64,000 nucleotides of DNA from Corallococcus sp. AB011P (GTDB taxonomy: Bacteria; Myxococcota; Myxococcia; Myxococcales; Myxococcaceae), in the NCBI RefSeq assembly GCF_003611605.1, contig NZ_RAVX01000011.1, positions 132,811 through 196,810 on the forward strand, written 5' to 3'. The position numbers and the translations under genes are program-made. The notes below the pieces were generated by a model that ran no database searches, was not told where the DNA came from, and saw only the letters and a list, made by a program, of their open reading frames with translations. Of this stretch, positions 11,726 to 55,131 are shown one piece after another (position 1 is the first letter of the stretch; each line of letters begins with the position of its first letter).

Positions 11726-12613
11726 CTACGCAAGCAGCGTGGCGTCCATCACGGTGAGGGCCACTCCGCCGACGCGGGCGCGCTCGATGTGGCCTGGCCG
11801 GCCGGTGACCTGGATGTCGATGCGGCCCGGCTTGCCGAGCGTGTCACCCTGTTCGATGCGGCTCGACACCGTGCCGCCGTGCTCCGGGAGGCGAAGGCTC
11901 CCGTGCTCGGCGAGGTAGGCCGCGAGCGGTCCCGCGGCGGAGCCCGTCACGGGGTCCTCCAGGATGCCGAACCCCGGGACGAAGTAGCGCGCCTGGGCCA
12001 CGCTCCCCTCCTCCTTCGCTTCGCGGGTGAAGAGGTAGACGCCGCGCATGCCGTGCGGCATCAGCAGCGCGTTCATCGCCGCGCCTCGCGGCGTCAGGGC
12101 CTCCAGGTCCGCGAGCCGCCGGAGGGGCACCACCAGCCGGTGGCCCTGGCGGATCACCGGCAGCGACGGGTCCACCTGTGACGCCGTCCCGCCCAGCGTG
12201 GCCATCAGCGCGTCCAGCGCCACGGGGTTGGGCTGCGCGGGCGGCGGGGGCGTGGCGATCCACACCCGCGACCCGTGCGCCCCCTGGGGCTCCAGCTCGA
12301 TGTCGAACGTGCCGCCGGGGCACTCCAGCGTGTACGTCCCCGGGCTTCGCAGGAGCCCCTTCTCCGCGAGCAGGTGGAAGGTGGCCACCGTGGCGTGGCC
12401 GCAGAAGGGAATCTCGTCCACGGGCGTGAAGTAGCGCAGGCGCACGGTGGCGTCGCCGGGCCGGGACAGCAGGAACGCGGTCTCCGACGCGCTGACGGCC
12501 GCGGCGGTCCGCTGCATCGTGGGGACCTCCAGCGCCGAGGCGTCGAGCACCACGCCCGCGCGGTTTCCTGCACCGGCGGTGCGGGTGAAGGCATCGATGA
12601 TGTGAACCTGCAT
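11726..12613 (-). CDS. PhzF-family phenazine-biosynthesis-like isomerase
   Basis: PhzF/DapF-like fold signatures (MQVHIIDAFT..GNRAGVV, ETAFL). 295 aa, typical size. Confidence 0.7.
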   Translation of the reverse strand: MQVHIIDAFTRTAGAGNRAGVVLDASALEVPTMQRTAAAVSASETAFLLSRPGDATVRLRYFTPVDEIPFCGHATVATFHLLAEKGLLRSPGTYTLECPGGTFDIELEPQGAHGSRVWIATPPPPAQPNPVALDALMATLGGTASQVDPSLPVIRQGHRLVVPLRRLADLEALTPRGAAMNALLMPHGMRGVYLFTREAKEEGSVAQARYFVPGFGILEDPVTGSAAGPLAAYLAEHGSLRLPEHGGTVSSRIEQGDTLGKPGRIDIQVTGRPGHIERARVGGVALTVMDATLLA

Positions 12614-12755
12614 GGACGGACTCCGGACGGGGCAAGGGCCTGGGAAACGGCGCAGGCATGCTCCGCTCCACCGTTGGCGTCAAGCGCTGGGCCGACGCAC
12701 AGGCCCCCCACAACAGGGTTGAACGGGAGCGCCCGAGCAGGCACAGCAGTGGTGC

Positions 12756-13532
12756 ATGGGTCTCCTGAAACCAGGTGGGTGGGTGGTGCTGGTGGTGTTG
12801 CTCCACACGAGCGGCGCGGCGGCACAGATCGTCAACGTACAGGCGCTCTTCGACGAGAAGGCGGAGCCGGGGCCGGCCGCGGCCATCGAGCTGGGAGGCG
12901 ACTGGCGAACGGGCAGCACGGAGCTGTTCTCCATCCGCGGCTCCCTGGTGGGCCAGCTGCGCTCCGAGCGCGGCGTCTGGCTGGGCGTCATCCGAGGTGA
13001 GTATTCGTTCGCCAGTGGCGAGCGCATCGTCAGCCAGGTGCTGGAGCACGTGCGCTACCGGCGCTGGTTCACCGACGTGCTGTCGGGAGAGGTATTCGCC
13101 CAGCATGAATACAACGAGTTCCGCAGGCTCCAGCTCCGTGCCCTGCTGGGCGCGGGTCCGCGCTTCGTCCTGCTCAACGAGGACCGCCTGGGGTTCACCT
13201 TCGGGGTGGCTTTGATGCTGGAGTACGAGCGGCTGCGCAAGGACGGCGAGCCGGACGCGGGAGACCGCTACATGGACCCGCGAGTCTCCAGCTATCTGCT
13301 GGGCCGGGTGAAGCTGATGGAGAACATCAACCTCGTGGAGACGGTCTACTTCCAGCCGCGAGTCACCCGCCCCTCCGACCTGCGCGTGCTCAACGAGACC
13401 ATCTTCGCGGTGACGCCCAATCCCCGCGTCACGGTGGGCATCGGCTTCAACCTCACCTACGACAGCGCGCCGCCCGCGACGGTGCCAGCGCTGGACACGC
13501 AGCTGCGCACCACGGTGGGCGTGAAACTTTGA
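12756..13532 (+). CDS. Outer-membrane beta-barrel protein, DUF481/YdiY-like
   Basis: N-terminal signal peptide, alternating amphipathic beta-strand pattern, C-terminal aromatic residue. Family call is tentative. Confidence 0.5.
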   Translation: MGLLKPGGWVVLVVLLHTSGAAAQIVNVQALFDEKAEPGPAAAIELGGDWRTGSTELFSIRGSLVGQLRSERGVWLGVIRGEYSFASGERIVSQVLEHVRYRRWFTDVLSGEVFAQHEYNEFRRLQLRALLGAGPRFVLLNEDRLGFTFGVALMLEYERLRKDGEPDAGDRYMDPRVSSYLLGRVKLMENINLVETVYFQPRVTRPSDLRVLNETIFAVTPNPRVTVGIGFNLTYDSAPPATVPALDTQLRTTVGVKL

Positions 13533-13942
13533 GTGGGTGGCAAGCAGCGCGTTGACGAATCCAGCGCGGGAGCAAGGCTCGGGAGGACGCATCTTCTCCA
13601 GCGTCAACGACTCATCCACGGTGACCGCGCGCGTATTGCGCCTGGGGGGCTGCACCATCAAGCCCCGCGCCGCCAGCCACCGCAGCGCCTCGCGCGCTGT
13701 GGCCCGGCATGCTCCATAGAGACGCGCCAGCTTCGCTTCCGAGCCGAACTGCGCGCGGGCCGGCAGTCCCCCCAGCGACAACCCACGCTCGAACTGCTCC
13801 CCCACAAACGCCACGAGCCCCACCATCACCATCCCCTCCTCGTCCCAGCGTCGCCATCCAACCACAGGGGTCTGACATGGGCGCGAGGCACACCCTTCGC
13901 GTCGCCCGCCGGGCCAGTGCGGCCCCGGGCCGCATGCGTCGA

Positions 13943-13969
13943 AAACCTGTCCGACTGTCGGACAGGTTT
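13943..13969. repeat. 27-bp perfect palindrome AAACCTGTCCGACTGTCGGACAGGTTT (copy 1)
   Basis: Seen directly. The same 27-mer recurs at 14086, 54587, 54697 and 54807. Followed by the conserved GGAGGGAACCGGGCCCGGGCGGG. Confidence 0.9.
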
Positions 13970-14085
13970 GGAGGGAACCGGGCCCGGGCGGGTGCCCCTG
14001 TCCGAGCCCTCACCTGGTGGAGTTCGCGCACGCATGACGATGCGGATCCGAAGGGCCGCCGCGCCCCCAGGCCTCGTGTGGCGGA

Positions 14086-14112
14086 AACCTGTCCGACTGT
14101 CGGACAGGTTTG
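14086..14112. repeat. 27-bp perfect palindrome (copy 2), with the same 3' flank as copy 1
   Basis: Seen directly, 143 bp downstream of copy 1, in the 755-bp non-coding gap upstream of proC. Confidence 0.9.
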
Positions 14113-14287
14113 GAGGGAACCGGGCCCGGGCGGGCGCATCGGTTCGTGGGTCCGCATTTCCGTCCGCTCCCGCATCCCGTCGAGCTCCATTGCTGCGCCC
14201 AGCCAAGGCGCGCGCCGTCGCGGAGAACACCGGGTCACGGCCTCTGTTGAGAACTCCGGGCTGCCCACTTGAGGTTAGGCTTCAGCG

Positions 14288-15139
14288 ATGGCGTCCCATT
14301 CCATCCCCGCCCCCGTCGTCCTCCTGGGCGGCGGCAAGATCGCTGAAGCCCTCATCCTGGGATTGTTGCGGTCCGGCCACGTGCGTTCGTCGGACCTTCG
14401 CGTCACGGTGCGCCGGCCCGAGCGCGGGGAGGAGCTGCGCTCCCGGCATGGCGTGCACGTCCTCATGGACAACGCGCAGGCGGTGCGGGGCGCGGGGGTG
14501 ATCCTGCTGGCCGTGCGGCAGGCGCAGCTGCGGGAGCTGATGGCGGTCATCTCGCCTGCCCTGGAACCGGGGCAGACCGTGGTGTCGCTCTCCGCGGACT
14601 TGCGACTCGCGCAGTTGGAAGCGGCGTTGCCCTCCTGCGTCTCTGTCATCCGCGCCCTGCCCCATACACCCGTGCGCGTGGGAGCAGGCGTGACGCCCCT
14701 GACGGCCGGGACCCGGGCGACGGAGACCGCGAGGCAAGCCACCGAGTCCGTCTTCGCCGCGACGGGACGGCCGATGTGGATGACCGAGGAAGCACTCACG
14801 GTCTGCACGGGCGTGTGCGGCACGGGCCCCGCGTATGTCTTCCGCTTCGTGGAGACCCTGGCCCAGGCCGCCATGGCGCACGGGATGGACGCGGCGGAAG
14901 CGGCGGCGCTCGCGAAGGAAACGCTCATTGGCGCGGCGAAGCTGCTGGCCGAACCCGGCGCCACCACCCCTCGCCTCATCACGGAGATCGCGACCCCGGG
15001 AGGCATCACCGAGGCGGGGCTGAAGGCGATGGACGCCCACGGTCTGCCGCGCGTCGTGGGCGAAGCGGTCTCCGTCGCCATCCAGCGCACCCGGGAGCGC
15101 GCGGACACAAACGCCGCGGCCTACAGCACGCCGAAGTGA
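14288..15139 (+). CDS. proC: Pyrroline-5-carboxylate reductase
   Basis: Rossmann N-terminus (VVLLGGGKIAEALILGL) and ProC C-terminal dimerisation domain (GTGPAYVF...TTPGGITEAGL). Confidence 0.85.
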   Translation: MASHSIPAPVVLLGGGKIAEALILGLLRSGHVRSSDLRVTVRRPERGEELRSRHGVHVLMDNAQAVRGAGVILLAVRQAQLRELMAVISPALEPGQTVVSLSADLRLAQLEAALPSCVSVIRALPHTPVRVGAGVTPLTAGTRATETARQATESVFAATGRPMWMTEEALTVCTGVCGTGPAYVFRFVETLAQAAMAHGMDAAEAAALAKETLIGAAKLLAEPGATTPRLITEIATPGGITEAGLKAMDAHGLPRVVGEAVSVAIQRTRERADTNAAAYSTPK

Positions 15140-43501: not shown

Positions 43502-46500
43502 GTGCGCATCCGTGACCAGGGCCCGAAGGCCTCCGCCAAGGCCATGCTCCGGAAGAGCTCCGGGCGCACTCCCTCGTCCTCCGCGGCCCTTCCCCGTGCA
43601 CCGGGTGTCGTTCCCCGGGGCCCCTCCTCGTCCAATCCCGCACGTGAGCTGGCGGCACGGCTCGCGTCACTGAAGGGCGCGGCGCCTGCCCTCCATGGGC
43701 CCGTGCTTCGCGATGCCGCGCGCGACCTGGAGCGCCGCTGGAGCGACCCGGCGTGGCGCACGCTGGGCGGTCCGCGCTCGCACCTCTTCGAGCCGTGCCC
43801 GGTCCACCCGCCGGAGGTCGCGCTGCTCTCCACGCCCGGCGCCATCGAGGCGGAGCTGGGCATCCACGGACTCTCACCCCAGCCGAACACCGGGCTCGCG
43901 CAGGCGGCTGGCGCGTCCCAGCCCGCGACCCTCGCGCAGCAGGAGGAGGACGCTCGACGGCGTGATGCGGCACGCATGGCCGTCCTGCCTCCGGGCTCCG
44001 CTGAACAGCTCGGAGACACCGCCGCTCGGCTCGCCGAGGCCCGTGCTTCAGACCTCGCACCCGCTGCGGACACTGAAGAGGCGGAAGCGGCGGGACTTGG
44101 GGGCAGCACTTCTCCTGCGCCCGAGGACATCGCGGCGACCACCGTCGATGCGCCCAGCGCGGGCGGCGAACTGGCAACGCCGGATCAAGCTCCCGCGCCC
44201 GCATCCATCCCCACGGGGACGGCTCCCGGCGGCATGGACGACGCCGCGCGCATCGACACGCTGGTGACCGCACTGTCCAGCGAGGGCGATGTCCACATCG
44301 TCGTCCGTCAGGCATCCCCTGGCACAGGGCCCCGGGAGCCTCCTTCCATCCAGACGGATGCCACGGTCGACACGGGCCTCCCCGAAGCGCGCCCGATGGT
44401 GCCCGCACCTCCGGCCGAGATGGACTGGCAGAAGCAACTGGCCGCGGCCCACGCGCAGGGCGTCCAGGGCATCAAGCACGGTCTCGAAACCGCGCCGGAT
44501 CCAACGGGCGCCGTTGCGGCGGTGGAGCCCCCTGCCCGCCTTCCCGCTCCGCCTCCTGCTCCGGCCGCACCTGTCACGGCAGGGCCCATCCCCACTGCCC
44601 CGGTGATGGGCACGGACGCGGATCCGGTCGCCGCATGGAAGGGCCGCATCGCCAGCAGCACTGCGCGGGTCCCGGAGCCCCAGCTTCCTCCGGCGCCCCG
44701 CTACACGTTCAAGATCATCCAGGCCGCCGTGGACCCCAACGCGGTCCGCGCCGCGCGCCTCAAGCAACTGGAGGACGAAGGCAAGAAGGCCATCACCCCG
44801 GCGAAGCAGCCGAAGGACCTTCCGACCATCCCGGACGACCCCACCGGCAAGGCCTCCTCCCTGGTGGATGCGAAGTGCGAACGGAAGCTGGAGGTCAAGG
44901 ACGCCAGGCTCCCCGACCTGCTGAAGAGCCCGCTGGGCCATGTGCCGGAGATTGGCGCGCAGCTCATGCGCGACGACGGCGGGCACACGCTCATCAAGGG
45001 CCCGCTCGGCGACATCGTCTACAAGCCCGGCGGCCCCAAGCCCACCGACCCGGAGAAGCTCAAGGACTGGACGCGCCTCCAGAAGAAGATCACCGCCGAG
45101 GCCGACAAGCAGAAGAAGGCGAAGGTCCAGCCCAAGGAACCCGCGAAGGGCATCACCGTCCTCGAACAGGCCGCTCCCGCGCCCATCAACGTCCCCGACT
45201 TCGCTCGCGTGGACATTGGCGACGTGCTGGCGCGGCTGCTCGCCGCTCCGGACAAGTACGCGGACGCCTCCGTCCAGAAGGCCCGCGAGGCCTATGTCCC
45301 GGGCGGCCTGGATGCGTCCTGGGGCGTGCCGCTCATCGCCGCTGAACGGCCCATCTTCGCCGCGGAGCTCCAGCGCGTCGCGGACGCCGCGCAGATCAAG
45401 AAGGCGGACCTGGACGCGAAGGTGGAGGCCCGCCGCAAGCAACTGGTGGACTCGCACGCCGCCACCACCGGCTCGCTCAGCAAGGCCCACGAGGAGGCGA
45501 AGAAGAGTCTGGAGGAGGGCGGCAAGTCCTTCGCCGACGCCCTGTCGCGCATGCGCGCCTCGCTCGACGCGCAGTCCGAGGCCAAGGCCGCCGCCATCAA
45601 GGGCGGCGTCGACCTGACCGAGGCCCGACGCAAGCGCGACGCGCTCATCGCGGCCGTGGACACCAAGGTGAGCAACTGGGTCGTCCGGTACGACCAGAAC
45701 GGCAAGCGCTTCAAGGAAGCCTTCGCGAAGGCCGCGACCGACCAGATGCACGCCTACGAGCTCGCCGCGCTCCAGGACGAGTGGGAGCTCAAGAAGGACG
45801 CCGGCGATGATCCGGTGAAGCTCAAGGCGGCCACGGAGGCGTACCGCCCCACCAAGAAGTGGCTGGACGACCGCCGCAAGGAGATTGGCGCTGTCGTCGC
45901 GAAGGCGAAGCGCGACATCGACCAGAGCGTGGAGCGCTACCAGCAGGAGCTGCGCGACGCCGGCAAGGAGGCCCGGGAGGTCATCCGCGACTGGCATGCG
46001 AAGCAGATCGGCTACGAGCGCGGATTCTGGGACCGGCTGCTCGGGTGGATCATCGACTGGCTGGACGTCGCCCACGACGAGAGCCGCGCGTGGGAGGCCG
46101 CTCGCGCGGCGGAGAACAAGACGTCGTTGGATCAGAACATGCTGTTCCTCGCGGAGGTGCGCCTGCGCCAGGGCGAGGAGCTGGACGCGGAGACCATCAA
46201 GGGCAACCACGCTCTCAGCGAGGAGCAGCAGGCCATCCTGCTCTCCTACTACGGCAAGGGTGGCAAGGACGCGGTGCAGGCGCTCGCGGAGGGCCTTGCC
46301 GTGCGCATCATCGGCCAGCGCCGCAAGCCGCTGATGGAGGCCCTGGAGAAGGAGCTGCTCGCGTCCACCGACCTGGAGCGGTTGAAGGTCGTCGTCGACC
46401 AGCAGGAGCCCCTCTTCAGCAACCGCGCCCGCAACATCTCCCTCAAGGTCTGGGAGGGCGTGGACCAGTGGGGCACGGACGAGAAGAAGATCTTCGACGC

Positions 46501-49500
46501 GCTCGCCAACCTCAACCCGCTGCAGGGCCACTACATCGAGCTCCTCTACCAGCAGGAGCACGACGAGAACCTGCGCGAGCGGCTCAAGAGCGAGCTGGAC
46601 GACTTCTTCAGCACCACCACGCATGACTGGGACAGGGCGGAAGCCCTGCTCTCCGGCAACGCCGCCAAGGCCGCCGCCGTCGAGCTGAACGACGCCATGG
46701 AGGGCACCTTCCTCGGGACCGGCTGGGGCACGGACGAGGACGCCATCTTCAACCTGCTTCGCGGCAAGACGCCGGAGCAGATCGAAGTCATCAAGAAGGC
46801 CTACCAGCAGAAATACGGCAAGGACCTCGTCGCCCAGATGGACGACGAGCTGCGCAGCGGCGCGCGCACGACGCACGACGCGGACGAGATGCACGCCCTG
46901 GTGGAGGGCCGCACCGAGGACGCGCGCGCCATCGAGATGGACCGCGCCATGCGCGGCGGGTGGTTCTTTGGCCTGGGCACCGACCGCAAGGCCATGGAGG
47001 GCGTCTACGACCGCATCCGCAAGGAGACGGAAGCAGACGCGCAGCAGTACGGCTGGGATACCAAGACGTTCCGCGCGGAGCTGCTCAAGCGCAACCAGGC
47101 CATCGACGCGTCGTATGAGCAGCAATACGGCACGGATTGGACCCAGCGCACCGCGGGCGAGAGCGCGCTCAGCGCCGCGTTCCACGATGAGATGAAGGGC
47201 GAGGACCTCAAGCTCATCGAGGGCCTGCGCGACGACAAGGGACTCCAGGTGGATGCCGCGCGCATCCGCATCGAGCACACCAGCATCCTCTACGCGGACG
47301 ACAAGATCATCCGCGACGCCATGTCCGCGCAGGGCAAGCGGCAGATCGCCGACGCGCGCCGCGACGGATACCTGGACGTCCAGGAGCGGCTGGACATCGA
47401 GCGCAGCCTGGACGAGGCGAAGGTCAAACCCGCCAGCGAGGGCCCGCTCACGGAGGAGGACCGCCGCAAGGGCCGCATCAGCGAGCTGGAGTTCCTGGAG
47501 AAGTGGAGCCCGGAGAAGGTCCAGGCCCGCGTCACGAAGGAACGCAAGGAGGTGGACGACAAGGCGAAGGTCCAGGCCCAGGCTGACGCCCAGGCGAACA
47601 TGAAGGCGCTGGCGGCCGAGTACGACAGCGCCTACGTGGAAGGCACGCACCTGCAGGCGGGCTTCGAGCAGGCCGTCCTGATGGACACCTCCGGCGCGGA
47701 CCGCGACGCCGTCGCGGCGATGCTGCAGAAGGGCTACCTCACCGACGCCGAAATCGTTCAGTACGCCGTGCAGGGCGTAGGCACGGACGAGGACGCGCTC
47801 AAGGAGGTCTTCGCAGGAAAGACAAAGGCGGAGATTCAAGCCATGGCCGAGGAGTGGGCCAAGGACCACCCCGCCGATCCTGGTGACACGCGCACGCCCT
47901 TCGAGCGCTTCCGCGATCGCATCGACGAGGAGCTGAGCGGGCGCGAAGAGTTCGACATCATGGACATGGTGGACTACGGCGAGCCCGTCACGCCCCGGGA
48001 GAAGGCGGACCGGGCCTGGCGCCGGGTGCACTTCGAGGCGCGCTCCACCAACAGCATGGCGTCGTCGGAGTACCAGCTGGTGCTGGACCAGGCGTCCGCG
48101 CTCGACGCAGAGGTGAGCGCGCTGGAGCTGCACGAGCGGATGCGCCCCAAGCCCGGGGACAAGAACTACACCGTCGACGGGCTGCGCAAGTGGCAGGACG
48201 ACTGGGAGAAGAAGTCCGAGCGCGTGCAGCGCCAGGGGGACTACGCGGACGAGGCGGTGCAGATGCACCGCGAGCAGGTGGACTTCATCACCGACCGGCT
48301 GGTGACCATCCTCTCCGTGGTGGTGATGGCGGTGGTGGTCATCATCGGCGTCATCGTCAGCATCTTCTTCCCGCCCGCGGGCGCGGGGTTCTGGGCCGCG
48401 TTCGGCGCGTTCATGGCCAGCACGCCGGTGCTGGTGGGCACGGCGGTGGCGACGGCCGCGGTGACGATGCTGACCAAGGCCGCCCTGAAGGGCAGCGCCT
48501 ACGGCTGGGAGGAGGCCGCCACCGACGCGGGCGTGGGCGCCGTGGATGCGCTCGCCTCCGTGGCCACCGCGGGCATGGGCACGAAGCTGCTCAAGCTGGG
48601 GTTCCTGGCGCGCATGGCGGAGGAAGGCGGCGTGCTGGCGCGCATGACGGCGCACGGCCTGGCCCAGGGCGCGGAAGGCCTGGCGCAGGCGGTGCCCTCC
48701 GCGTTCCTGGGCAACGTCCTCAACGACGAGAACTACAAGGGCGGCAACGCGCTCTTCAACGTGCTGGCCGGCACCGCGATGCAGGCGGCGCCGGGCGCGG
48801 TGATGGCCGGAGGGCTGGGCGCGCTGGGCGGCATCTCCAAGCCCCACGTGCCACCTCGAACCCAGGACCTGCTCCACTTCCGGGGCACGCCCAAGGAGCG
48901 GCTGACCCTCTTCAAGAAGTGGAAGGCGGAGAACCCCGCCGGGGACATGAAGGAGTTCCTGCGCGAGTTCGACGACGGCCTGCTCAAGCAGATGTCGGGC
49001 GACTTCGACCGGCAGCAGCTCCAGCGCGCGATGCGCAAGGAGTTGCTCGAGCACATCCCGCCCGCGCAGCGCAAAGCGTTCGCGAACACGCCCATCGAGA
49101 TGCTCTCCGAGGGTGACTTCGAGTCGCTCACCGGCAGCAAGTCCGCGCAGGCCGTCACGATGTTCCGGCGCGGCAAGCCCACCATCATCATCAAGGCGGG
49201 CGCGGACCTGTCCGACCTGGGTGAGGAGGGCCTGCACCTGCTCCAGCGCCACGACAAGGCGACGCGCGAGCTGGTCAGGTCGCTGGACGAAACGGCGCTG
49301 CGACACTGGGACCAGCTGCCCATCGAGAAGCAGTTCGAGCTCTATCGCAAGAAGCTGCGCCTGGAGATCGCGGCTCAGGAGTCGCTGCTCACGTCGCTGG
49401 AGGGCAAGCGCGGCGTGACCCTGGAGCCCGCGGAGGCCACGCGCCGGATCCGGCAGGGAGAGAAGACGCTGGCGAACCTGCGCCAGCGGATGAAGGAGGT

Positions 49501-51643
49501 GGATGCGTTCACGCCGGTGGAGATGGCGGAGTTCGGCCAGGGCGTGCGCTCGAAGCCTCAGTACCTGAATGAGCCGCCGCGGCTGTTCGGCAAGAAGAAG
49601 CCGCCCGAGGCTCCGCTGGCTCCGGAGGGAAAGCCGCCGGAGGTGGAGGGGGCCCGGCAGCTGGAGATGGAGTTCCATGCGGCGAAGCCGGTGAAGCCGC
49701 CGGAGCCGGAGGTTCCGACGCCCAGGCAGCTGGAGATGGGGTTCCCCGCGGAGAAGCCACCGGAGGTGGTCGTTCCGGAGACGAAGCCGCCAGCGGTGGA
49801 GGCGCCCAAGCCCACCGGCGAACCCGAGGTGCCGAAGGGCGCGCTGGCCGAGGGCGACTGGCCCCAGACGTTCGACGTGCACCCGAACGAAGACGTGGGC
49901 CCGTTCTCCCTCCAGCGTCCCGACCTGAATGACCCGAGGATTGGCCTGGTGGAGCGCACGCCGCTGACGGGGAAGCTGCTCAAGCGCACCACCCAGAAGC
50001 TCAACCCGGGGGAGACGCTGGCCCAGGTGGGACCAGCCTGGGAGGAGCTGAAGTTCGTCAAGAAGGGCCGCGTGTACGAACGGCGCTACTACCGCCTGGT
50101 CGAGAAGACCGACACGAACGGCGAGAAGCACCTCTTCGAGGAGATCCTCTCCGCCCGCTCGGGCAACCGCTGGGAGACGCGCGGCGAATTCGCCCGGAGG
50201 GAGGGAAACGAACTGGAGAAGGTCGCCTCCCTGCGGATGACCGAGGCGAACCTGGGCGACCGGCTGGGGCCGGGCAAGGAGTTCCAGCGCGTCACCTTCA
50301 AGCCCAAGGGCAAGCAGGACAGCGGCTTCGACGAGCTGCTCTTCCAGTTCGACGATGGCGTCAACCCCACCAAGGCGGACGTCCACATCATGGAGGTCAA
50401 GGGGGGCAAGGACGAGCCCCGGTTCCGCAAGTTCACCTCCACCGGAGAGAACCTGCCCGGCAACCTGAAGCAGCTTCGCGCTGCGCTGGACGACCCCAAC
50501 TGGAGGCGCAGCCAACAGCTGAGCCCGAGGCACGCCGCGGTGGTCAGGGACGCCCTGGACGCGTGGCGGGTGAGAATCGAGGTGCGCATCGGGCCCAAGA
50601 CGGAGATGCCCCCCCAGCTGCTGTCCAAGCGCATCGAGCGGGCGGCGAGCGCCTGGCGCGAGTTGGACCTGCTCACCCAGCATCTGCCACCGGGCGCGGA
50701 GGACCTGGCGCTCGTCAAGCGGCTCAAGGCCGACCTCAGGACGGCGCTCAAGTCGGGGAACGTCGACATCGCGGACCGGGCCTTCGACCGGATCGAGGCC
50801 ATCGTGAACGGCGCCACGCCCGGCGAGGGGCTCTTCGCGAAGCATGGCATCGAGCTCGACCCCCGGCCTCCCATGATGCGCGGCCTGGATCCCAACGAGG
50901 TCGCGGGCACCATCGTCCGGATCGACGAGAAGTTCATGCCCCCTCCCCCCGTCAAGACCGCCTCGGTCGAAGACGTGGTGGATGTCGTCACGGGGCTGGA
51001 CGAAACCAAACGGGTCCGCAATCGGATCGCGGGCGGCCGGGTGCTGGGGTGGGGAGACTTCGACATCACCGAGTCCCTTCAATGGAAGACGCGGAAGCTC
51101 CAGGCCTTCGAGCGCGCGCAGCTGCGCGACATCCGCGACCAGCTCGTGCAGATTCCAGAACTCGACCCCAAGCGCTTCAACGCGCTGCCGCCCCTGGAAA
51201 AGGAGCTGGCGCTGCGCGAGGCGGCGGAGGCCACCATGGAGGCGCTGGGCATCCCGAAGTCGCGGCGGCCGGAGGTCCTCTTCAAGCGCCTGCGCGGGGA
51301 CTATGGCTACATGAGCTGGAACTTCCGGCGCCTCAAGGGCGGACGGCTGAAGCCGTACCGGAAGCGGGGCCAGCTGGTCATCGCGAAGGGGCTGACGGTG
51401 GGCGAAGCGGTAGGCACCATCGTCCACGAGACCCGGCACTACTATCAGGCCTATCAGGCCTACCAGCTGTCGCTCCGGCGCCAGGCGCATCCGCTCGCGG
51501 CGCTGTGGGCGGGCAACCTTCCCGGCTCCGGCGGCACGTACCACATCGCGGGCCCGCGCTACTATTCACAACCCATCGAGGTGGACGCGGAGACCTTTGG
51601 CCGCCGTCTCATCGATCTGCTCCCGGGGCGATGGCCCCCTTGA
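43502..51643 (+). CDS. Giant (2713 aa) multidomain protein: disordered Pro/Ala-rich N-terminus, at least four annexin repeats, transmembrane segment(s), Pro/Glu-rich linker, C-terminal HExxH-containing domain. Candidate effector/toxin.
   Basis: GTG start after GGGGGGA. Annexin repeats (QWGTDEKKIFDAL...LKSELDDFF, GWGTDEDAIFNLLRGKTPEQIEVIKKAYQQKYGKDL...DDELRSG, GLGTDRKAMEGVYDRIRKE, GVGTDEDALKEVFAGKTKAEIQAM). Hydrophobic block (ILSVVVMAVVVIIGVIVSIFF). C-terminal IVHETRHYYQ. Uniform high-GC3 codon usage over 8.1 kb. Confidence 0.8.
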   Translation: MRIRDQGPKASAKAMLRKSSGRTPSSSAALPRAPGVVPRGPSSSNPARELAARLASLKGAAPALHGPVLRDAARDLERRWSDPAWRTLGGPRSHLFEPCPVHPPEVALLSTPGAIEAELGIHGLSPQPNTGLAQAAGASQPATLAQQEEDARRRDAARMAVLPPGSAEQLGDTAARLAEARASDLAPAADTEEAEAAGLGGSTSPAPEDIAATTVDAPSAGGELATPDQAPAPASIPTGTAPGGMDDAARIDTLVTALSSEGDVHIVVRQASPGTGPREPPSIQTDATVDTGLPEARPMVPAPPAEMDWQKQLAAAHAQGVQGIKHGLETAPDPTGAVAAVEPPARLPAPPPAPAAPVTAGPIPTAPVMGTDADPVAAWKGRIASSTARVPEPQLPPAPRYTFKIIQAAVDPNAVRAARLKQLEDEGKKAITPAKQPKDLPTIPDDPTGKASSLVDAKCERKLEVKDARLPDLLKSPLGHVPEIGAQLMRDDGGHTLIKGPLGDIVYKPGGPKPTDPEKLKDWTRLQKKITAEADKQKKAKVQPKEPAKGITVLEQAAPAPINVPDFARVDIGDVLARLLAAPDKYADASVQKAREAYVPGGLDASWGVPLIAAERPIFAAELQRVADAAQIKKADLDAKVEARRKQLVDSHAATTGSLSKAHEEAKKSLEEGGKSFADALSRMRASLDAQSEAKAAAIKGGVDLTEARRKRDALIAAVDTKVSNWVVRYDQNGKRFKEAFAKAATDQMHAYELAALQDEWELKKDAGDDPVKLKAATEAYRPTKKWLDDRRKEIGAVVAKAKRDIDQSVERYQQELRDAGKEAREVIRDWHAKQIGYERGFWDRLLGWIIDWLDVAHDESRAWEAARAAENKTSLDQNMLFLAEVRLRQGEELDAETIKGNHALSEEQQAILLSYYGKGGKDAVQALAEGLAVRIIGQRRKPLMEALEKELLASTDLERLKVVVDQQEPLFSNRARNISLKVWEGVDQWGTDEKKIFDALANLNPLQGHYIELLYQQEHDENLRERLKSELDDFFSTTTHDWDRAEALLSGNAAKAAAVELNDAMEGTFLGTGWGTDEDAIFNLLRGKTPEQIEVIKKAYQQKYGKDLVAQMDDELRSGARTTHDADEMHALVEGRTEDARAIEMDRAMRGGWFFGLGTDRKAMEGVYDRIRKETEADAQQYGWDTKTFRAELLKRNQAIDASYEQQYGTDWTQRTAGESALSAAFHDEMKGEDLKLIEGLRDDKGLQVDAARIRIEHTSILYADDKIIRDAMSAQGKRQIADARRDGYLDVQERLDIERSLDEAKVKPASEGPLTEEDRRKGRISELEFLEKWSPEKVQARVTKERKEVDDKAKVQAQADAQANMKALAAEYDSAYVEGTHLQAGFEQAVLMDTSGADRDAVAAMLQKGYLTDAEIVQYAVQGVGTDEDALKEVFAGKTKAEIQAMAEEWAKDHPADPGDTRTPFERFRDRIDEELSGREEFDIMDMVDYGEPVTPREKADRAWRRVHFEARSTNSMASSEYQLVLDQASALDAEVSALELHERMRPKPGDKNYTVDGLRKWQDDWEKKSERVQRQGDYADEAVQMHREQVDFITDRLVTILSVVVMAVVVIIGVIVSIFFPPAGAGFWAAFGAFMASTPVLVGTAVATAAVTMLTKAALKGSAYGWEEAATDAGVGAVDALASVATAGMGTKLLKLGFLARMAEEGGVLARMTAHGLAQGAEGLAQAVPSAFLGNVLNDENYKGGNALFNVLAGTAMQAAPGAVMAGGLGALGGISKPHVPPRTQDLLHFRGTPKERLTLFKKWKAENPAGDMKEFLREFDDGLLKQMSGDFDRQQLQRAMRKELLEHIPPAQRKAFANTPIEMLSEGDFESLTGSKSAQAVTMFRRGKPTIIIKAGADLSDLGEEGLHLLQRHDKATRELVRSLDETALRHWDQLPIEKQFELYRKKLRLEIAAQESLLTSLEGKRGVTLEPAEATRRIRQGEKTLANLRQRMKEVDAFTPVEMAEFGQGVRSKPQYLNEPPRLFGKKKPPEAPLAPEGKPPEVEGARQLEMEFHAAKPVKPPEPEVPTPRQLEMGFPAEKPPEVVVPETKPPAVEAPKPTGEPEVPKGALAEGDWPQTFDVHPNEDVGPFSLQRPDLNDPRIGLVERTPLTGKLLKRTTQKLNPGETLAQVGPAWEELKFVKKGRVYERRYYRLVEKTDTNGEKHLFEEILSARSGNRWETRGEFARREGNELEKVASLRMTEANLGDRLGPGKEFQRVTFKPKGKQDSGFDELLFQFDDGVNPTKADVHIMEVKGGKDEPRFRKFTSTGENLPGNLKQLRAALDDPNWRRSQQLSPRHAAVVRDALDAWRVRIEVRIGPKTEMPPQLLSKRIERAASAWRELDLLTQHLPPGAEDLALVKRLKADLRTALKSGNVDIADRAFDRIEAIVNGATPGEGLFAKHGIELDPRPPMMRGLDPNEVAGTIVRIDEKFMPPPPVKTASVEDVVDVVTGLDETKRVRNRIAGGRVLGWGDFDITESLQWKTRKLQAFERAQLRDIRDQLVQIPELDPKRFNALPPLEKELALREAAEATMEALGIPKSRRPEVLFKRLRGDYGYMSWNFRRLKGGRLKPYRKRGQLVIAKGLTVGEAVGTIVHETRHYYQAYQAYQLSLRRQAHPLAALWAGNLPGSGGTYHIAGPRYYSQPIEVDAETFGRRLIDLLPGRWPP

Positions 51644-52965: not shown

Positions 52966-54479
52966 TGCACTCCCCTGCCCTCGTCGCGCGGCCGGAGGTT
53001 TCCTTCGAGGCGATGGACCGGGTGCTGTCCGCGTTGGGCTGGTTCCTCCAGTCCGAAAGCCAGACGCCTCCGCTCATCCCCGGCGAGCCGGAGTCCGCGG
53101 TGTATGTGAAGCGCGCGACGGACCTGGCGCTCCACTACACGTTCAACCCGGTGCTCCGGCTGCGGGTGCTCGAGTTCTCCGGACCTGACGCGGTGGGGGA
53201 ATGGGTGGCCGTGCGCAAGGTGGTGCCGGTGCTGGAGGCCCCGGCGCTCGCGGCGCTGCTGACGTCGTCGGAGACGCGGGAGGTGCTGCTGGGGTTGCTG
53301 GCCACGGAGGCGCTGCGGGAGCGCTCGTCGATGGAGCGCGTGGCGGCGCTGCGCTTCCATCCGGAGTTCAGCGTGTCGCGGACCGCGGAGCGCGTGCTGG
53401 CGTCGCTGGTGCCGGACGGGACGGAGGAGGCGTTCGCGCGGCTGAAGGCGGAGAAGGAGGCGCATCCGGATCGCTCCGTGCTGTTCGCGCACCTGCCGGG
53501 GGAGGAGCAGCGGCGGCAGGTGTTGCGCTGGCTCATCCAGGATCAGGCGGCGTCGAATCCGGACATCGACGCGGTGCTGCGCTCCGCGCTGGTGGACACG
53601 GACGCGGAGGTGCGGGTGACGGCGGTGATGGCGGCGGCCCGGCTCCAGGCGAGGGAGGTGCTGCCAGCGCTGCGCGCGGCCCGGATGCCCACGTCGACAC
53701 GGGAGGGCGCGGACCCGAGGGACCGGCAGTTCTATTCGAACCTGCGGGACCTGGTGGCCCAGGTGCTCGCGGGCCGGCCGCTGCCTCCGGAGGGTTCACC
53801 GAAGCGTGAGCGGATGGCTCCGCTCTTGCGCGCACTGTCGGGTCCCGCGGACGTGCGGGACGATCCCACGCTGCTGCTGCATGCGCTCACGACGCCGGTG
53901 GATCCGGGGCCACGTTCGGTGGGACTGCCCGAAGCGGTGGTGGAGCGGGAAGGCACATACCGGCTGCGCCGCTCCGGGTTGGAGGCGCGCTGGGTGCCTC
54001 CGGTGGAGCACTGGCTGGGGACGGGGCCGACGCTGCGGCGCGTGACGTCACCGGGGTTCTTCGTCGCTCGGGTGCCCGTGAGCCGGGCCGCGGCGGCCTG
54101 GGCGATGGCGGCTTCGCAGGGGCCGGTGGGTACGGCGGGGCCGGACGCGGAGGAGCCGCTGCCCTGCACTCTCGTGGAGGCGGAGCAGGTGTGCTCGGCG
54201 CTGTCGCGCATTGAGGGCGTGGAGCTGCGGCTGCCTTCCAGCGAGGAATGGGAGATGGCTGCCCGCGGGCCGGACGGGCGGCTGTTCCCGTGGGGCAATT
54301 CGATGCGGGACGACGGGGCTTCACGGGCTTCGCCCTGGGGCGTGGAGAAGCTCGTGGCTTCGCTTCCGCAGTGGGCGCGGGAAGGCCTGCTGTGCGGGGG
54401 ACGGGAACAGCCGCTGTGCGCTTCGCGCCGCGAGGTGGCGGCGGCGGTGGGCGCCGTCCGATGGGTGCTGGCCTCCTGA
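52965..54479 (+). CDS. HEAT-repeat protein with a C-terminal formylglycine-generating-enzyme (FGE/SUMF1-type) domain
   Basis: PBS-lyase/HEAT-like repeats (VRVTAVMAAARLQAREVLPAL). C-terminal RLPSSEEWEMAARGPDGRLFPWGN, matching the FGE-sulfatase domain core. Confidence 0.6.
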   Translation: MHSPALVARPEVSFEAMDRVLSALGWFLQSESQTPPLIPGEPESAVYVKRATDLALHYTFNPVLRLRVLEFSGPDAVGEWVAVRKVVPVLEAPALAALLTSSETREVLLGLLATEALRERSSMERVAALRFHPEFSVSRTAERVLASLVPDGTEEAFARLKAEKEAHPDRSVLFAHLPGEEQRRQVLRWLIQDQAASNPDIDAVLRSALVDTDAEVRVTAVMAAARLQAREVLPALRAARMPTSTREGADPRDRQFYSNLRDLVAQVLAGRPLPPEGSPKRERMAPLLRALSGPADVRDDPTLLLHALTTPVDPGPRSVGLPEAVVEREGTYRLRRSGLEARWVPPVEHWLGTGPTLRRVTSPGFFVARVPVSRAAAAWAMAASQGPVGTAGPDAEEPLPCTLVEAEQVCSALSRIEGVELRLPSSEEWEMAARGPDGRLFPWGNSMRDDGASRASPWGVEKLVASLPQWAREGLLCGGREQPLCASRREVAAAVGAVRWVLAS

Positions 54480-54549
54480 AGCTGACTGGCAGCTCGAGGA
54501 CGCCAGGGCCGCCGCTCACGAAGCTGGGCCCCCTGGGAAGTCGGGGAGC

Positions 54550-54880
54550 TTCAGGCTGGCAGCCACCTCCGGGGACGAAGCTCCTCAAACCTGTCCGACT
54601 GTCGGACAGGTTTCCCGAGGCCGCAACCGGCAGGGCCCCCTCACCCCAAGTCGAGGAGTTTCAGGCTGGCAGCCACCTCCGGGGACGAAGCTCCTCAAAC
54701 CTGTCCGACTGTCGGACAGGTTTCCCGAGGCCGCAACCGGCAGGGCCCCCTCACCCCAAGTCGAGGAGTTTCAGGCTGGCAGCCACCTCCGGGGACGAAG
54801 CTCCTCAAACCTGTCCGACTGTCGGACAGGTTTCCCGCGGCCGCAGCCGGCAGGGCCCCCTCCCCCTCGGTGCCACCGAC
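54550..54880. repeat. Three tandem copies of a 110-bp unit, each containing the 27-bp palindrome AAACCTGTCCGACTGTCGGACAGGTTT (at 54587, 54697, 54807)
   Basis: Seen directly. Unit: TTCAGGCTGGCAGCCACCTCCGGGGACGAAGCTCCTCAAACCTGTCCGACTGTCGGACAGGTTTCCCGAGGCCGCAACCGGCAGGGCCCCCTCACCCCAAGTCGAGGAGT. Copies 1 and 2 are identical; copy 3 carries a few substitutions. Confidence 0.9.
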
Positions 54881-54909: not shown

Positions 54910-55131
54910 CTACTTCTTCGGCATCCGGATGCTGGGGTTCGCCGCGACCCGGGGCGCGCTCTTCGCCTTGAAGCTGCCACCGGCCGCGGCCTTCATCGTG
55001 GGCCCCTTGGCCGCGGCTCCCAGCTGGGCCCTGGCTGTGTCCGTCTTGGGCTGCTGCGACGGCGCGATGGCCTTGTTCATGGCGGGCTTGCGGTCGGGCG
55101 TCTTCCGCGTCTGGGGCGTCATTGTCTTCAT
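54910..55131 (-). CDS. Small basic Lys/Ala/Pro-rich protein (73 aa), last gene of the coupled minus-strand operon
   Basis: ATG overlaps the stop of the upstream gene (ATGA). High GC3 codon usage. Disordered, basic composition. Confidence 0.45.
   Translation of the reverse strand: MKTMTPQTRKTPDRKPAMNKAIAPSQQPKTDTARAQLGAAAKGPTMKAAAGGSFKAKSAPRVAANPSIRMPKK

Follow-up and report, generated by a model that had tools for sequence, protein, structure and literature searches.

The gene for pyrroline-5-carboxylate reductase (proC) of Corallococcus sp. AB011P is preceded by an unusually long intergenic gap in which the same 27-bp palindrome occurs twice, and the question raised by this locus is what the gap consists of and where its palindromes come from. 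We analyzed the 64,000-nucleotide stretch that contains it (contig NZ_RAVX01000011.1, positions 132,811 to 196,810; hereafter the window, numbered from its first letter). An earlier note on this DNA had proposed a dimeric transcription-factor operator or a mobile palindromic element, and had considered a small regulatory RNA (sRNA) hidden in the gap. What it had missed is that the gap is an insertion carrying a dead regulator gene, and that the constraint on the palindrome falls on its GTC-N-GAC boxes and not on the hairpin. The reading that we favor, and regard as probable, is that the two palindromes of the gap represent operator-type sites belonging to a FadR/GntR cassette of which a dead copy remains here, and that the same sites have also multiplied in the manner of repetitive extragenic palindromes (REPs) or miniature inverted-repeat transposable elements (MITEs).

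The 755-bp gap (13533-14287) is real; it is bounded by a DUF481 gene (12783-13532) and by proC, the identity of which is backed by Pfam (P5C reductase). In Corallococcus caeni (locus L127) and Corallococcus praedator (L129) the DUF481 gene and proC are only 15-16 nt apart. The same site is filled in Corallococcus sp. EGB (L126) by an insert of ~3.05 kb, which holds an intact GntR-family gene of 421 aa, the short box ATGTCAGACC, one perfect palindrome, and about seven degenerate units arranged in an array. This comparison of empty, filled, and remnant sites shows that the gap is an insertion and not an ancestral spacer: Given the empty sites in two species and the filled site in EGB, the cassette entered after the split from C. 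caeni and C. praedator, and the window, from the DUF481 stop to the proC start, holds a decayed version of it. The genes flanking the gap are 86-90% identical to those of the C. caeni, C. praedator, and EGB loci, and the proC of the window shares 99% identity with its counterpart in Corallococcus sp. AB045. The remnant itself shares only 79% identity with the EGB cassette, yet the palindrome core is 27/27 identical in both copies of the window. The insert lies right after the DUF481 stop codon and just ahead of a ~17-nt stretch containing the proC ribosome-binding site. At the junctions, a comparison of empty and filled sites finds at most a 3-nt TGA repeated, which is also the stop codon and too short for a target-site duplication. 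The degenerate array of EGB (L126:2887-3213; about seven units with a period of ~50 nt) lies directly upstream of proC and is far larger than the two units of the window.

The earlier note saw no convincing open reading frame (ORF) in the gap. No intact gene is present, but positions 13590-13832 of the minus strand encode the first 81 residues of a GntR-type winged helix-turn-helix (wHTH) domain (Pfam GntR PF00392, E=1e-4; G+C content at third codon positions, GC3, 0.86). In tblastn searches, residues 1-81 are 67% identical to intact paralogs, and the DNA homology with all paralogs ends abruptly at 13594, beyond which the frame continues antisense to the DUF481 gene. Since it is truncated, 13590-13832 is a pseudogene remnant of a FadR/GntR-family paralog. 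A minus-strand open frame of 673 codons (11844-13865) starts in the pseudogene and runs antisense through the DUF481 gene and a PhzF-like gene; it is a by-product of the high G+C content and no gene.

Upstream of the remnant, in gene orientation, follow a Shine-Dalgarno-like GAGGAGG (13835-13841, minus strand), the box ATGTCAGACC (13869-13878, minus strand), and the two palindromes. In an alignment of 21 paralog leaders, the GAGGAGG of the dead gene is only 2 nt from the ATG as a result of a 9-nt deletion relative to the intact copies, and the ATGTCAGACC box is unchanged throughout. This box is a single GTC-N-GAC dyad ~50 nt ahead of the start codon, has its sole copy in the window here, and in most Corallococcus paralogs its center is 84 nt from that of the palindrome. 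The possibility that GTCTGACATGG starts an ORF (MSDPSGWM) was ruled out, as indels disrupt this frame and a GAGGAGG-ATG start lies further on; the sequence is a conserved DNA box and not a coding start. A scan of the gap for sigma-70 promoters and terminators found nothing, and inspection of the conserved leader by eye identified no promoter.

The palindromes are exact copies of one 27-mer, AAACCTGTCCGACTGTCGGACAGGTTT. The proximal copy lies at 13943-13969, where the earlier note had placed it, and the distal copy at 14085-14111, one position before the one it gave, which makes the start-to-start distance 142 and not 143 nt. Three further exact copies at 54587, 54697, and 54807 bring the total in the window to five, as had been claimed, and 100 shuffles of the sequence produced 0 matches even with 3 mismatches tolerated. 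The 27-mer has one central base between 13-nt arms and can be described as two adjoining dyad boxes, TGTCCGAC-TGTCGGAC, that is, TGTC-N-GAC followed by TGTC-N-GAC. The same flank, GGAGGGAACCGGGCCCGGGCGGG, directly follows each copy near 13.9 kb (13970-13992 and 14112-14134, plus strand), again as had been observed; it is identical in both and belongs to a 50-nt block of full identity within 99-nt units that are 83% alike overall. Outside the GGAGGGAACCGGGCCCGGGCGGG flank, the rest of the two units is only ~65% alike. Similar flanks recur at the paralog loci L104 and L053; the feature is specific to a subfamily, and the perfect identity of the two flanks may reflect either a second conserved site or gene conversion. 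The layout of two palindromes, with a degenerate distal copy, is also found in the closest subfamily (L053, L104, L013).

Beside the palindromes there is also a GC-rich dyad (GCGGCCCCGGGCCGC in the window; region 13976-13995), with equivalents in the paralog leaders ~10-30 nt on the gene side of the proximal palindromes (e.g., 13921-13935 of the window). It is present in most paralogs, and by eye its sequence varies between copies with the dyad form apparently kept; RNAalifold on the paralog leaders did not pick it up.

The three copies near 54.6 kb form a tandem array of 110-nt units (54538-54867; 27-mers at 54587-54613, 54697-54723, and 54807-54833), 95-98% identical to one another, with a Tandem Repeats Finder score of 623 and 97% matches. 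In their flanks these units are similar to a palindrome unit that intact paralogs carry at the 3' end (80% to L086 and L065 over ~100 nt), and a regulator gene is absent from the vicinity. The array sits between a convergent pair, an FGE-sulfatase gene ending at 54479 (plus strand) and an ORF of 70 aa ending at 54910 (minus strand). This small ORF (54910-55122) is basic, rich in Lys, Ala, and Pro, has a GC3 of 0.96, and is without a Pfam match.

The intact relatives of the dead gene belong to the FadR subfamily of GntR regulators. The intact protein matches Pfam GntR PF00392 (E=2e-13), aligns to residues 10-197 of Escherichia coli FadR (~190 residues), and has full-length similarity to FadR and NanR; it combines a GntR wHTH with an all-helical FCD-type C-terminal domain, of which the window copy keeps the wHTH only. 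An AlphaFold model shows the winged-helix and helical domains with confidence up to residue ~245 and a disordered tail beyond, and a Foldseek search with this model returned the FadR-DNA complex, NanR, McbR, and VanR on top (probability 1.00). Of the 323 homologues found in a database search, the best 120 are at least 68% identical and all from Corallococcus where named. The 10-Mb chromosome of Corallococcus exercitus SDU142 encodes at least 14 distinct members among the matches listed, and the eleven copies of this strain in the fetched loci are spread from 1.35 to 8.9 Mb with unrelated neighbors. Their recognition helix, [SC]RGT[VI]REALRRL, is near-invariant across the family. The DNA common to the paralogs spans ~1.05-1.15 kb at 82-95% identity, beginning ~110-250 nt past the palindrome and ending near codon 290. 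Synteny between species is seen for some copies (L121, L122); the expansion is therefore old and its copies have been retained. Recent transposition was rejected, as within one genome the most similar paralogs reach ~95% identity and no pair is near 100%. A phage origin was rejected as well: Viral contigs gave no match to the motif, nor did phage genomes yield a homologue of the regulator.

The ORFs of the paralogs run on past the conserved domains. All 18 of the 18 examined lack a stop at the domain end (~residue 255) and have tails of 77-300 codons, in which coding composition is missing (GC3 0.62-0.78 vs. 0.82-0.88 in the core). Degenerate palindrome units occur in these tails, where they are translated as GNLSDCRTG, and L013 has tandem repeats of ~22 aa as well; repeat-derived tails probably make the annotated lengths (320-430 aa) too long. 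A relative at 50% identity is likewise multicopy, with two genes on the 53-kb metagenome contig Ga0255338_1001188 (L130, L133) and another at L131, and the tail of its ORF consists of 99-nt tandem repeats containing GGTCTGCTTGTCAGACAGGT. The habit of pairing this gene with repeats reaches beyond the named Corallococcus.

The palindrome holds a fixed position relative to these genes, ~140 nt before the start codon in ~27 fetched paralog loci, and the proximal palindrome of the window occupies the same position relative to the dead gene. These loci had been chosen for containing the motif, so paralogs found independently were checked too. The paralog of Corallococcus coralloides DSM 2259, found by protein homology, has four palindromes, at -457, -323, -185, and -140; that of Corallococcus exiguus, found in the same way, has three, at -314, -183, and -138; and the EGB copy, found through proC synteny, has a palindrome upstream too. 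The three main-type paralogs found without the motif (L121, L123, L126) carry palindromes 138-185 nt upstream, and together with three that have variant arms (L122, L124, L125) this gives an autoregulation-type layout in 6/6 paralogs that are independent of the main-type pattern. Among the gene families around the motif, only the GntR family shows a close link to it (median distance, 128 nt). A single box, GTCAGAC, at about -50 to -55 is kept even in soil-metagenome relatives of 50% identity that are without the upstream double-box palindrome.

A subgroup of three paralogs (LASER...GRQARAV) carries a symmetric variant, AACTGGTCC(G/A)AC(T/A)GTCGGACCAGTT, in the palindrome position. In an ungapped alignment, residue 33 of this subgroup stands opposite R35 of FadR, which is listed as a DNA-binding residue (PMC4259882). 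Arg at this position in three paralogs goes with the arms ACTGGTCC...GGACCAGT, and Q, A, E, K, or V in 24 paralogs with ACCTGTCC...GGACAGGT or a near variant. The covariation of arm and residue is suggestive only. The variant arm CTGGTCCGAC is also the core of FadR site 1 at E. coli fadL, and E. coli FadR sites are reported to include it (PMC4259882).

To ask what is conserved within the motif, we compared the copies in ~1 Mb of fetched DNA, comprising 169 perfect cores and 130 imperfect copies. Among the latter, the GTC and GAC triplets of both boxes (positions 7-13 and 15-21) are almost unchanged. The box centers vary freely (position 18 is changed 38 times, position 10 is changed 12 times), and the outer positions 6, 22, and 23 are variable too. 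The stem pair 10/18 shows 48 one-sided changes against 1 that is compensated, and frequent variants such as TGTCCGAC-TGTCCGAC retain both boxes and break the hairpin. With the triplets fixed and the centers changed on one side only, the constraint is therefore that of a protein site, two adjacent GTC-N-GAC boxes, and not that of base pairing. A dyad GT-N(x)-AC core, as in operators of the GntR/FadR type, is present in each half of the 27-mer as GTC-N-GAC, and those six positions are the least variable among the 130 imperfect copies. The operator idea of the earlier note thus gains a fixed distance from FadR/GntR genes and a conservation pattern of the protein-site kind; the binding itself is predicted from these sequence features.

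The motif is by no means confined to the two loci of the window. A pattern scan with one genome per species found at least 120 stretches, nearly all in Corallococcus, with a few from Hyalangium, an Archangium metagenome-assembled genome (MAG), and two other MAGs. SDU142 holds at least 58 perfect copies and at least 112 with up to 3 mismatches, in 38 blocks of 8 kb, and KYC2213 at least 25 and at least 57, respectively, in 14 such blocks. Intergenic positions account for 131/140 classifiable copies, in every gene orientation: 51 intergenic units with copies lie between tandem genes, 29 between convergent and 19 between divergent genes, compared with 402, 143, and 132 among all intergenic regions of the same loci. 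By this split there is no strong promoter or terminator bias in the placement of the copies; there is a mild convergent excess (29% vs. 21%). Neighboring copies share their orientation in 34 cases and are opposed in 4. With degenerate copies counted, arrays reach ~9-12 units with periods of 50-92 nt, and the unit lengths observed in arrays (50, 69-73, 83, 92, 110, 125, and 133-144 nt) have no common helical phase.

Three copies lie in frame inside genuine ORFs with a GC3 above 0.9. Two of the in-frame palindromes (L087:3850-3872 and L089:7356-7378; ...PVR(Q/L)SDR...) are found at homologous sites within very long ORFs of C. coralloides and C. exercitus (GC3 0.89-0.95), and the third is at L037, so that a few copies are inside real genes. 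In the MAG MFD05674.bin.2.184 (L007, L009, L015, L020, L027, L107, and others), 16/16 copies are solitary, without a FadR/GntR paralog in the fetched blocks, and the symmetry reaches ~60 bp (CCGGGCGCG-TTTTCA-core-TGAAAA-CGCGCCCGG); this form may be an older or an independent version of the element.

Such dispersal is what would be expected of a hairpin-based mobile repeat, of the REP or MITE kind or of the kind of REP doublets forming hairpins (REPINs), that is moved by a transposase encoded elsewhere, with the regulator genes as frequent neighbors or cargo. The copy numbers within one genome, the intergenic placement, the tandem arrays of up to ~12 units, the filled and empty sites between DUF481 and proC, the in-frame copies, and the extended palindromes of the one MAG all speak for it. 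The stem pairing that such an element would need is not kept, only the box triplets being conserved, and a GTAG-type REP head and distinct terminal inverted repeats are absent. The junctions offer at most the doubtful TGA duplication, and the ~95% identity of the best paralog pairs in one genome gives no sign of recent transposition. Clustering of neighboring genes found no recurrent transposase-like family, two Pfam sweeps of ~200 neighbors found no transposase, RAYT, or phage family among the most frequent families listed and no theme in function, and no insertion sequence with matching ends was seen in ~1 Mb of loci. No RAYT was found among the scanned neighbors, a check that would miss a single copy elsewhere in the genome. 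We consider this explanation unlikely as a whole. Of the two main ideas of the earlier note, operator and mobile element, each is right in part: The mobile element has dispersal in well over 100 copies per genome, arrays, and empty-site polymorphism at this locus on its side and was found with no transposase, terminal repeats, or clear target-site duplication.

Slightly less likely still is that the palindrome is the site of a different conserved DNA-binding protein, a nucleoid-associated protein or a single-copy regulator of the Myxococcaceae and Archangiaceae, which the promoters of the paralogs merely happen to contain. An identical 23-nt core occurs in Hyalangium, the Archangium MAG, and an unclassified MAG without a paralog in the fetched blocks, most Corallococcus copies are solitary too, and a coherent regulon is absent. 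Against this, the GTC-N-GAC or GT-N3-AC dyad is of the GntR/FadR operator type with one arm variant equal to an E. coli FadR site, the single leader box is conserved in family members down to 50% identity, and the arm variant changes along with the residue opposite R35 of FadR.

An element acting at the RNA level, that is, a bidirectional intrinsic terminator or a hairpin stabilizing 3' ends that was copied around the genome, is improbable. The 27-mer could form a stem of 12 bp that is preceded by an A-run and followed by a T-run, convergent units are mildly enriched, and the array at 54.6 kb sits between convergent genes; but a terminator scan of 13300-14500, for a GC-rich stem with a U-run of 5 or more, was negative with a T-run of only 3 nt, many copies lie upstream of genes or between divergent genes, variants that break the hairpin are common and uncompensated, and RNAalifold supports the palindrome stem only, without covariation. 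That the gap encodes an sRNA, as the earlier note had wondered, has nothing beyond the gap length in its favor and is very improbable, given that local folding z-scores of -2 to -3.5 are accounted for by the palindromes themselves, that there is no Rfam match at the gathering threshold in the window or at E<=1 in the gap, that a scan for tRNA and tmRNA found nothing, and that the gap is made of a pseudogene and repeat units and is missing in C. caeni and C. praedator.

Several observations weigh against the operator reading that we prefer. Its link between protein and DNA rests on position, family resemblance, and substitution pattern. Conservation of the motif is inflated in appearance by the perfect-core loci, which were picked by the search pattern, and the gene contexts depend on our own codon-bias gene caller. 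The boxes are only 8 bp apart center to center, so that the seating of dimers is hard to picture. The covariation of Arg with the TGG arms comes from three loci, perhaps of one clade, and some solitary copies have mixed arms. About 80% of the copies have no paralog nearby; those in the soil MAG, the Archangium MAG, and Hyalangium have none in the fetched 8-kb blocks, and another conserved protein could bind there. It should also be noted that 29/99 intergenic units lie between convergent genes and that the 60 genes with their 5' end facing a copy share no function (at most 2 per Pfam family), neither of which resembles a classical regulon.

In summary, a cassette of ~1.3 to 3 kb, in which palindrome units and a leader accompany a GntR regulator gene of the FadR subfamily, inserted between the DUF481 stop codon and the proC ribosome-binding region, and its gene has been cut to 81 codons in the window. 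On the reading that the palindromes are operator-type sites, winged-helix dimers of the paralogs would bind each 27-mer as a predicted operator, and their near-identical recognition helices would allow any paralog to act on any copy. The palindrome ~140 nt and the single box ~50 nt upstream of intact copies would then yield both autoregulation and cross-regulation, and any effect on proC or other neighbors would likewise follow from such predicted binding. The box pair with 50-140 nt of flank has multiplied as solitary copies and tandem arrays, intergenic and in any orientation, giving a REP- or MITE-like dispersed repeat whose selected core is a putative protein-binding site. Dispersed copies could serve as extra targets, decoys, or roadblocks. 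Local tandem duplication would explain the arrays, and new loci may have been reached by recombination between palindrome units or by a trans-acting enzyme. We put forward more tentatively, as a possibility rather than an expectation, that regulator and operator form a self-amplifying module, in which a FadR-type gene and its own sites make up a dispersed multicopy element without a transposase, spread by recombination between palindrome units or by another route.

Both of the known kinds involved, operator sites and interspersed palindromic repeats, have counterparts elsewhere; the unusual feature is the apparent joint amplification of a transcription factor gene and its site. Like other regulators of the FadR subfamily (E. 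coli FadR, NanR), the Corallococcus protein has a winged helix and an all-helical C-terminal domain, retains the residues aligned with the FadR contacts R45, T47, and R49, and has sites with a dyad GT-N3-AC core upstream of its own gene, as in the FadR operators (fadL, fadD, fadBA) and the tandem repeats bound by NanR. Unlike in these systems, the motif has two boxes 8 bp apart, forms arrays far from any promoter, and is present in hundreds of copies per genome. Many near-identical paralogs (14 among the matches listed for one chromosome) take the place of one regulator, the ORF tail is disordered and built from repeat DNA, and a link to fatty-acid genes was not seen. The units resemble REPs, bacterial interspersed mosaic elements, and the REPIN-RAYT system in being short, palindromic, and intergenic, in numbering tens to hundreds per genome, and in being often clustered and genus-specific. 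They differ in that the clusters are direct and not alternating repeats, a GTAG head is lacking, the stem is under no pairing constraint, and the associated gene encodes a transcription factor, with no RAYT found among the neighbors.

The Correia elements of Neisseria are MITEs that carry protein-binding sites, and they share with the Corallococcus repeat the polymorphism of filled and empty sites, a position near gene ends, and a possible effect on the expression of neighbors. The Corallococcus units, of 50 to 144 nt, differ from them in lacking terminal inverted repeats separate from the core, a clear target-site duplication, and a parent insertion sequence. Tandem arrays of binding sites are also known from plasmids (sopC, parC, iterons) as head-to-tail repeats of tens of bases, each with a short inverted repeat for a helix-turn-helix protein, whereas the arrays described here are chromosomal, occur at dozens of loci, and have no partition or replication genes nearby. 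The few copies in frame in real genes, without stop codons, recall the Rickettsia palindromic elements, although in-frame copies are rare here (3 of ~140) and the unit is much shorter. A full-text literature search, with incomplete coverage, found no description of the motif, of myxobacterial REPs or MITEs, or of an expanded GntR family in Corallococcus.

Should binding of these sites by the paralogs be borne out, the Corallococcus chromosome would show a transcription factor multiplying jointly with its operator, with dozens of gene copies and more than 100 site arrays inserted beside unrelated genes such as proC. This would bear on how regulatory networks are rewired in large bacterial genomes, on what interspersed repeats are selected for, and on the reasons for the large genome size of myxobacteria. 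Were the self-amplifying module to hold, many near-identical regulators and more than 100 binding-site arrays would form a network across the genus, and there would be a class of bacterial interspersed repeats defined by a protein-binding box and not by a hairpin or transposase ends. In practical terms, an odd long gap is explained, look-alike "FadR/GntR family regulators" with probably repeat-derived C-terminal tails can be flagged, and the genus-specific repeat could serve in strain typing.

One further repeat was observed in the window, a 69-nt tandem repeat at 49631-49758 (1.9 copies, 80% matches), which lies within a gene of 2346 codons (44603-51643) and is unrelated to the palindrome.

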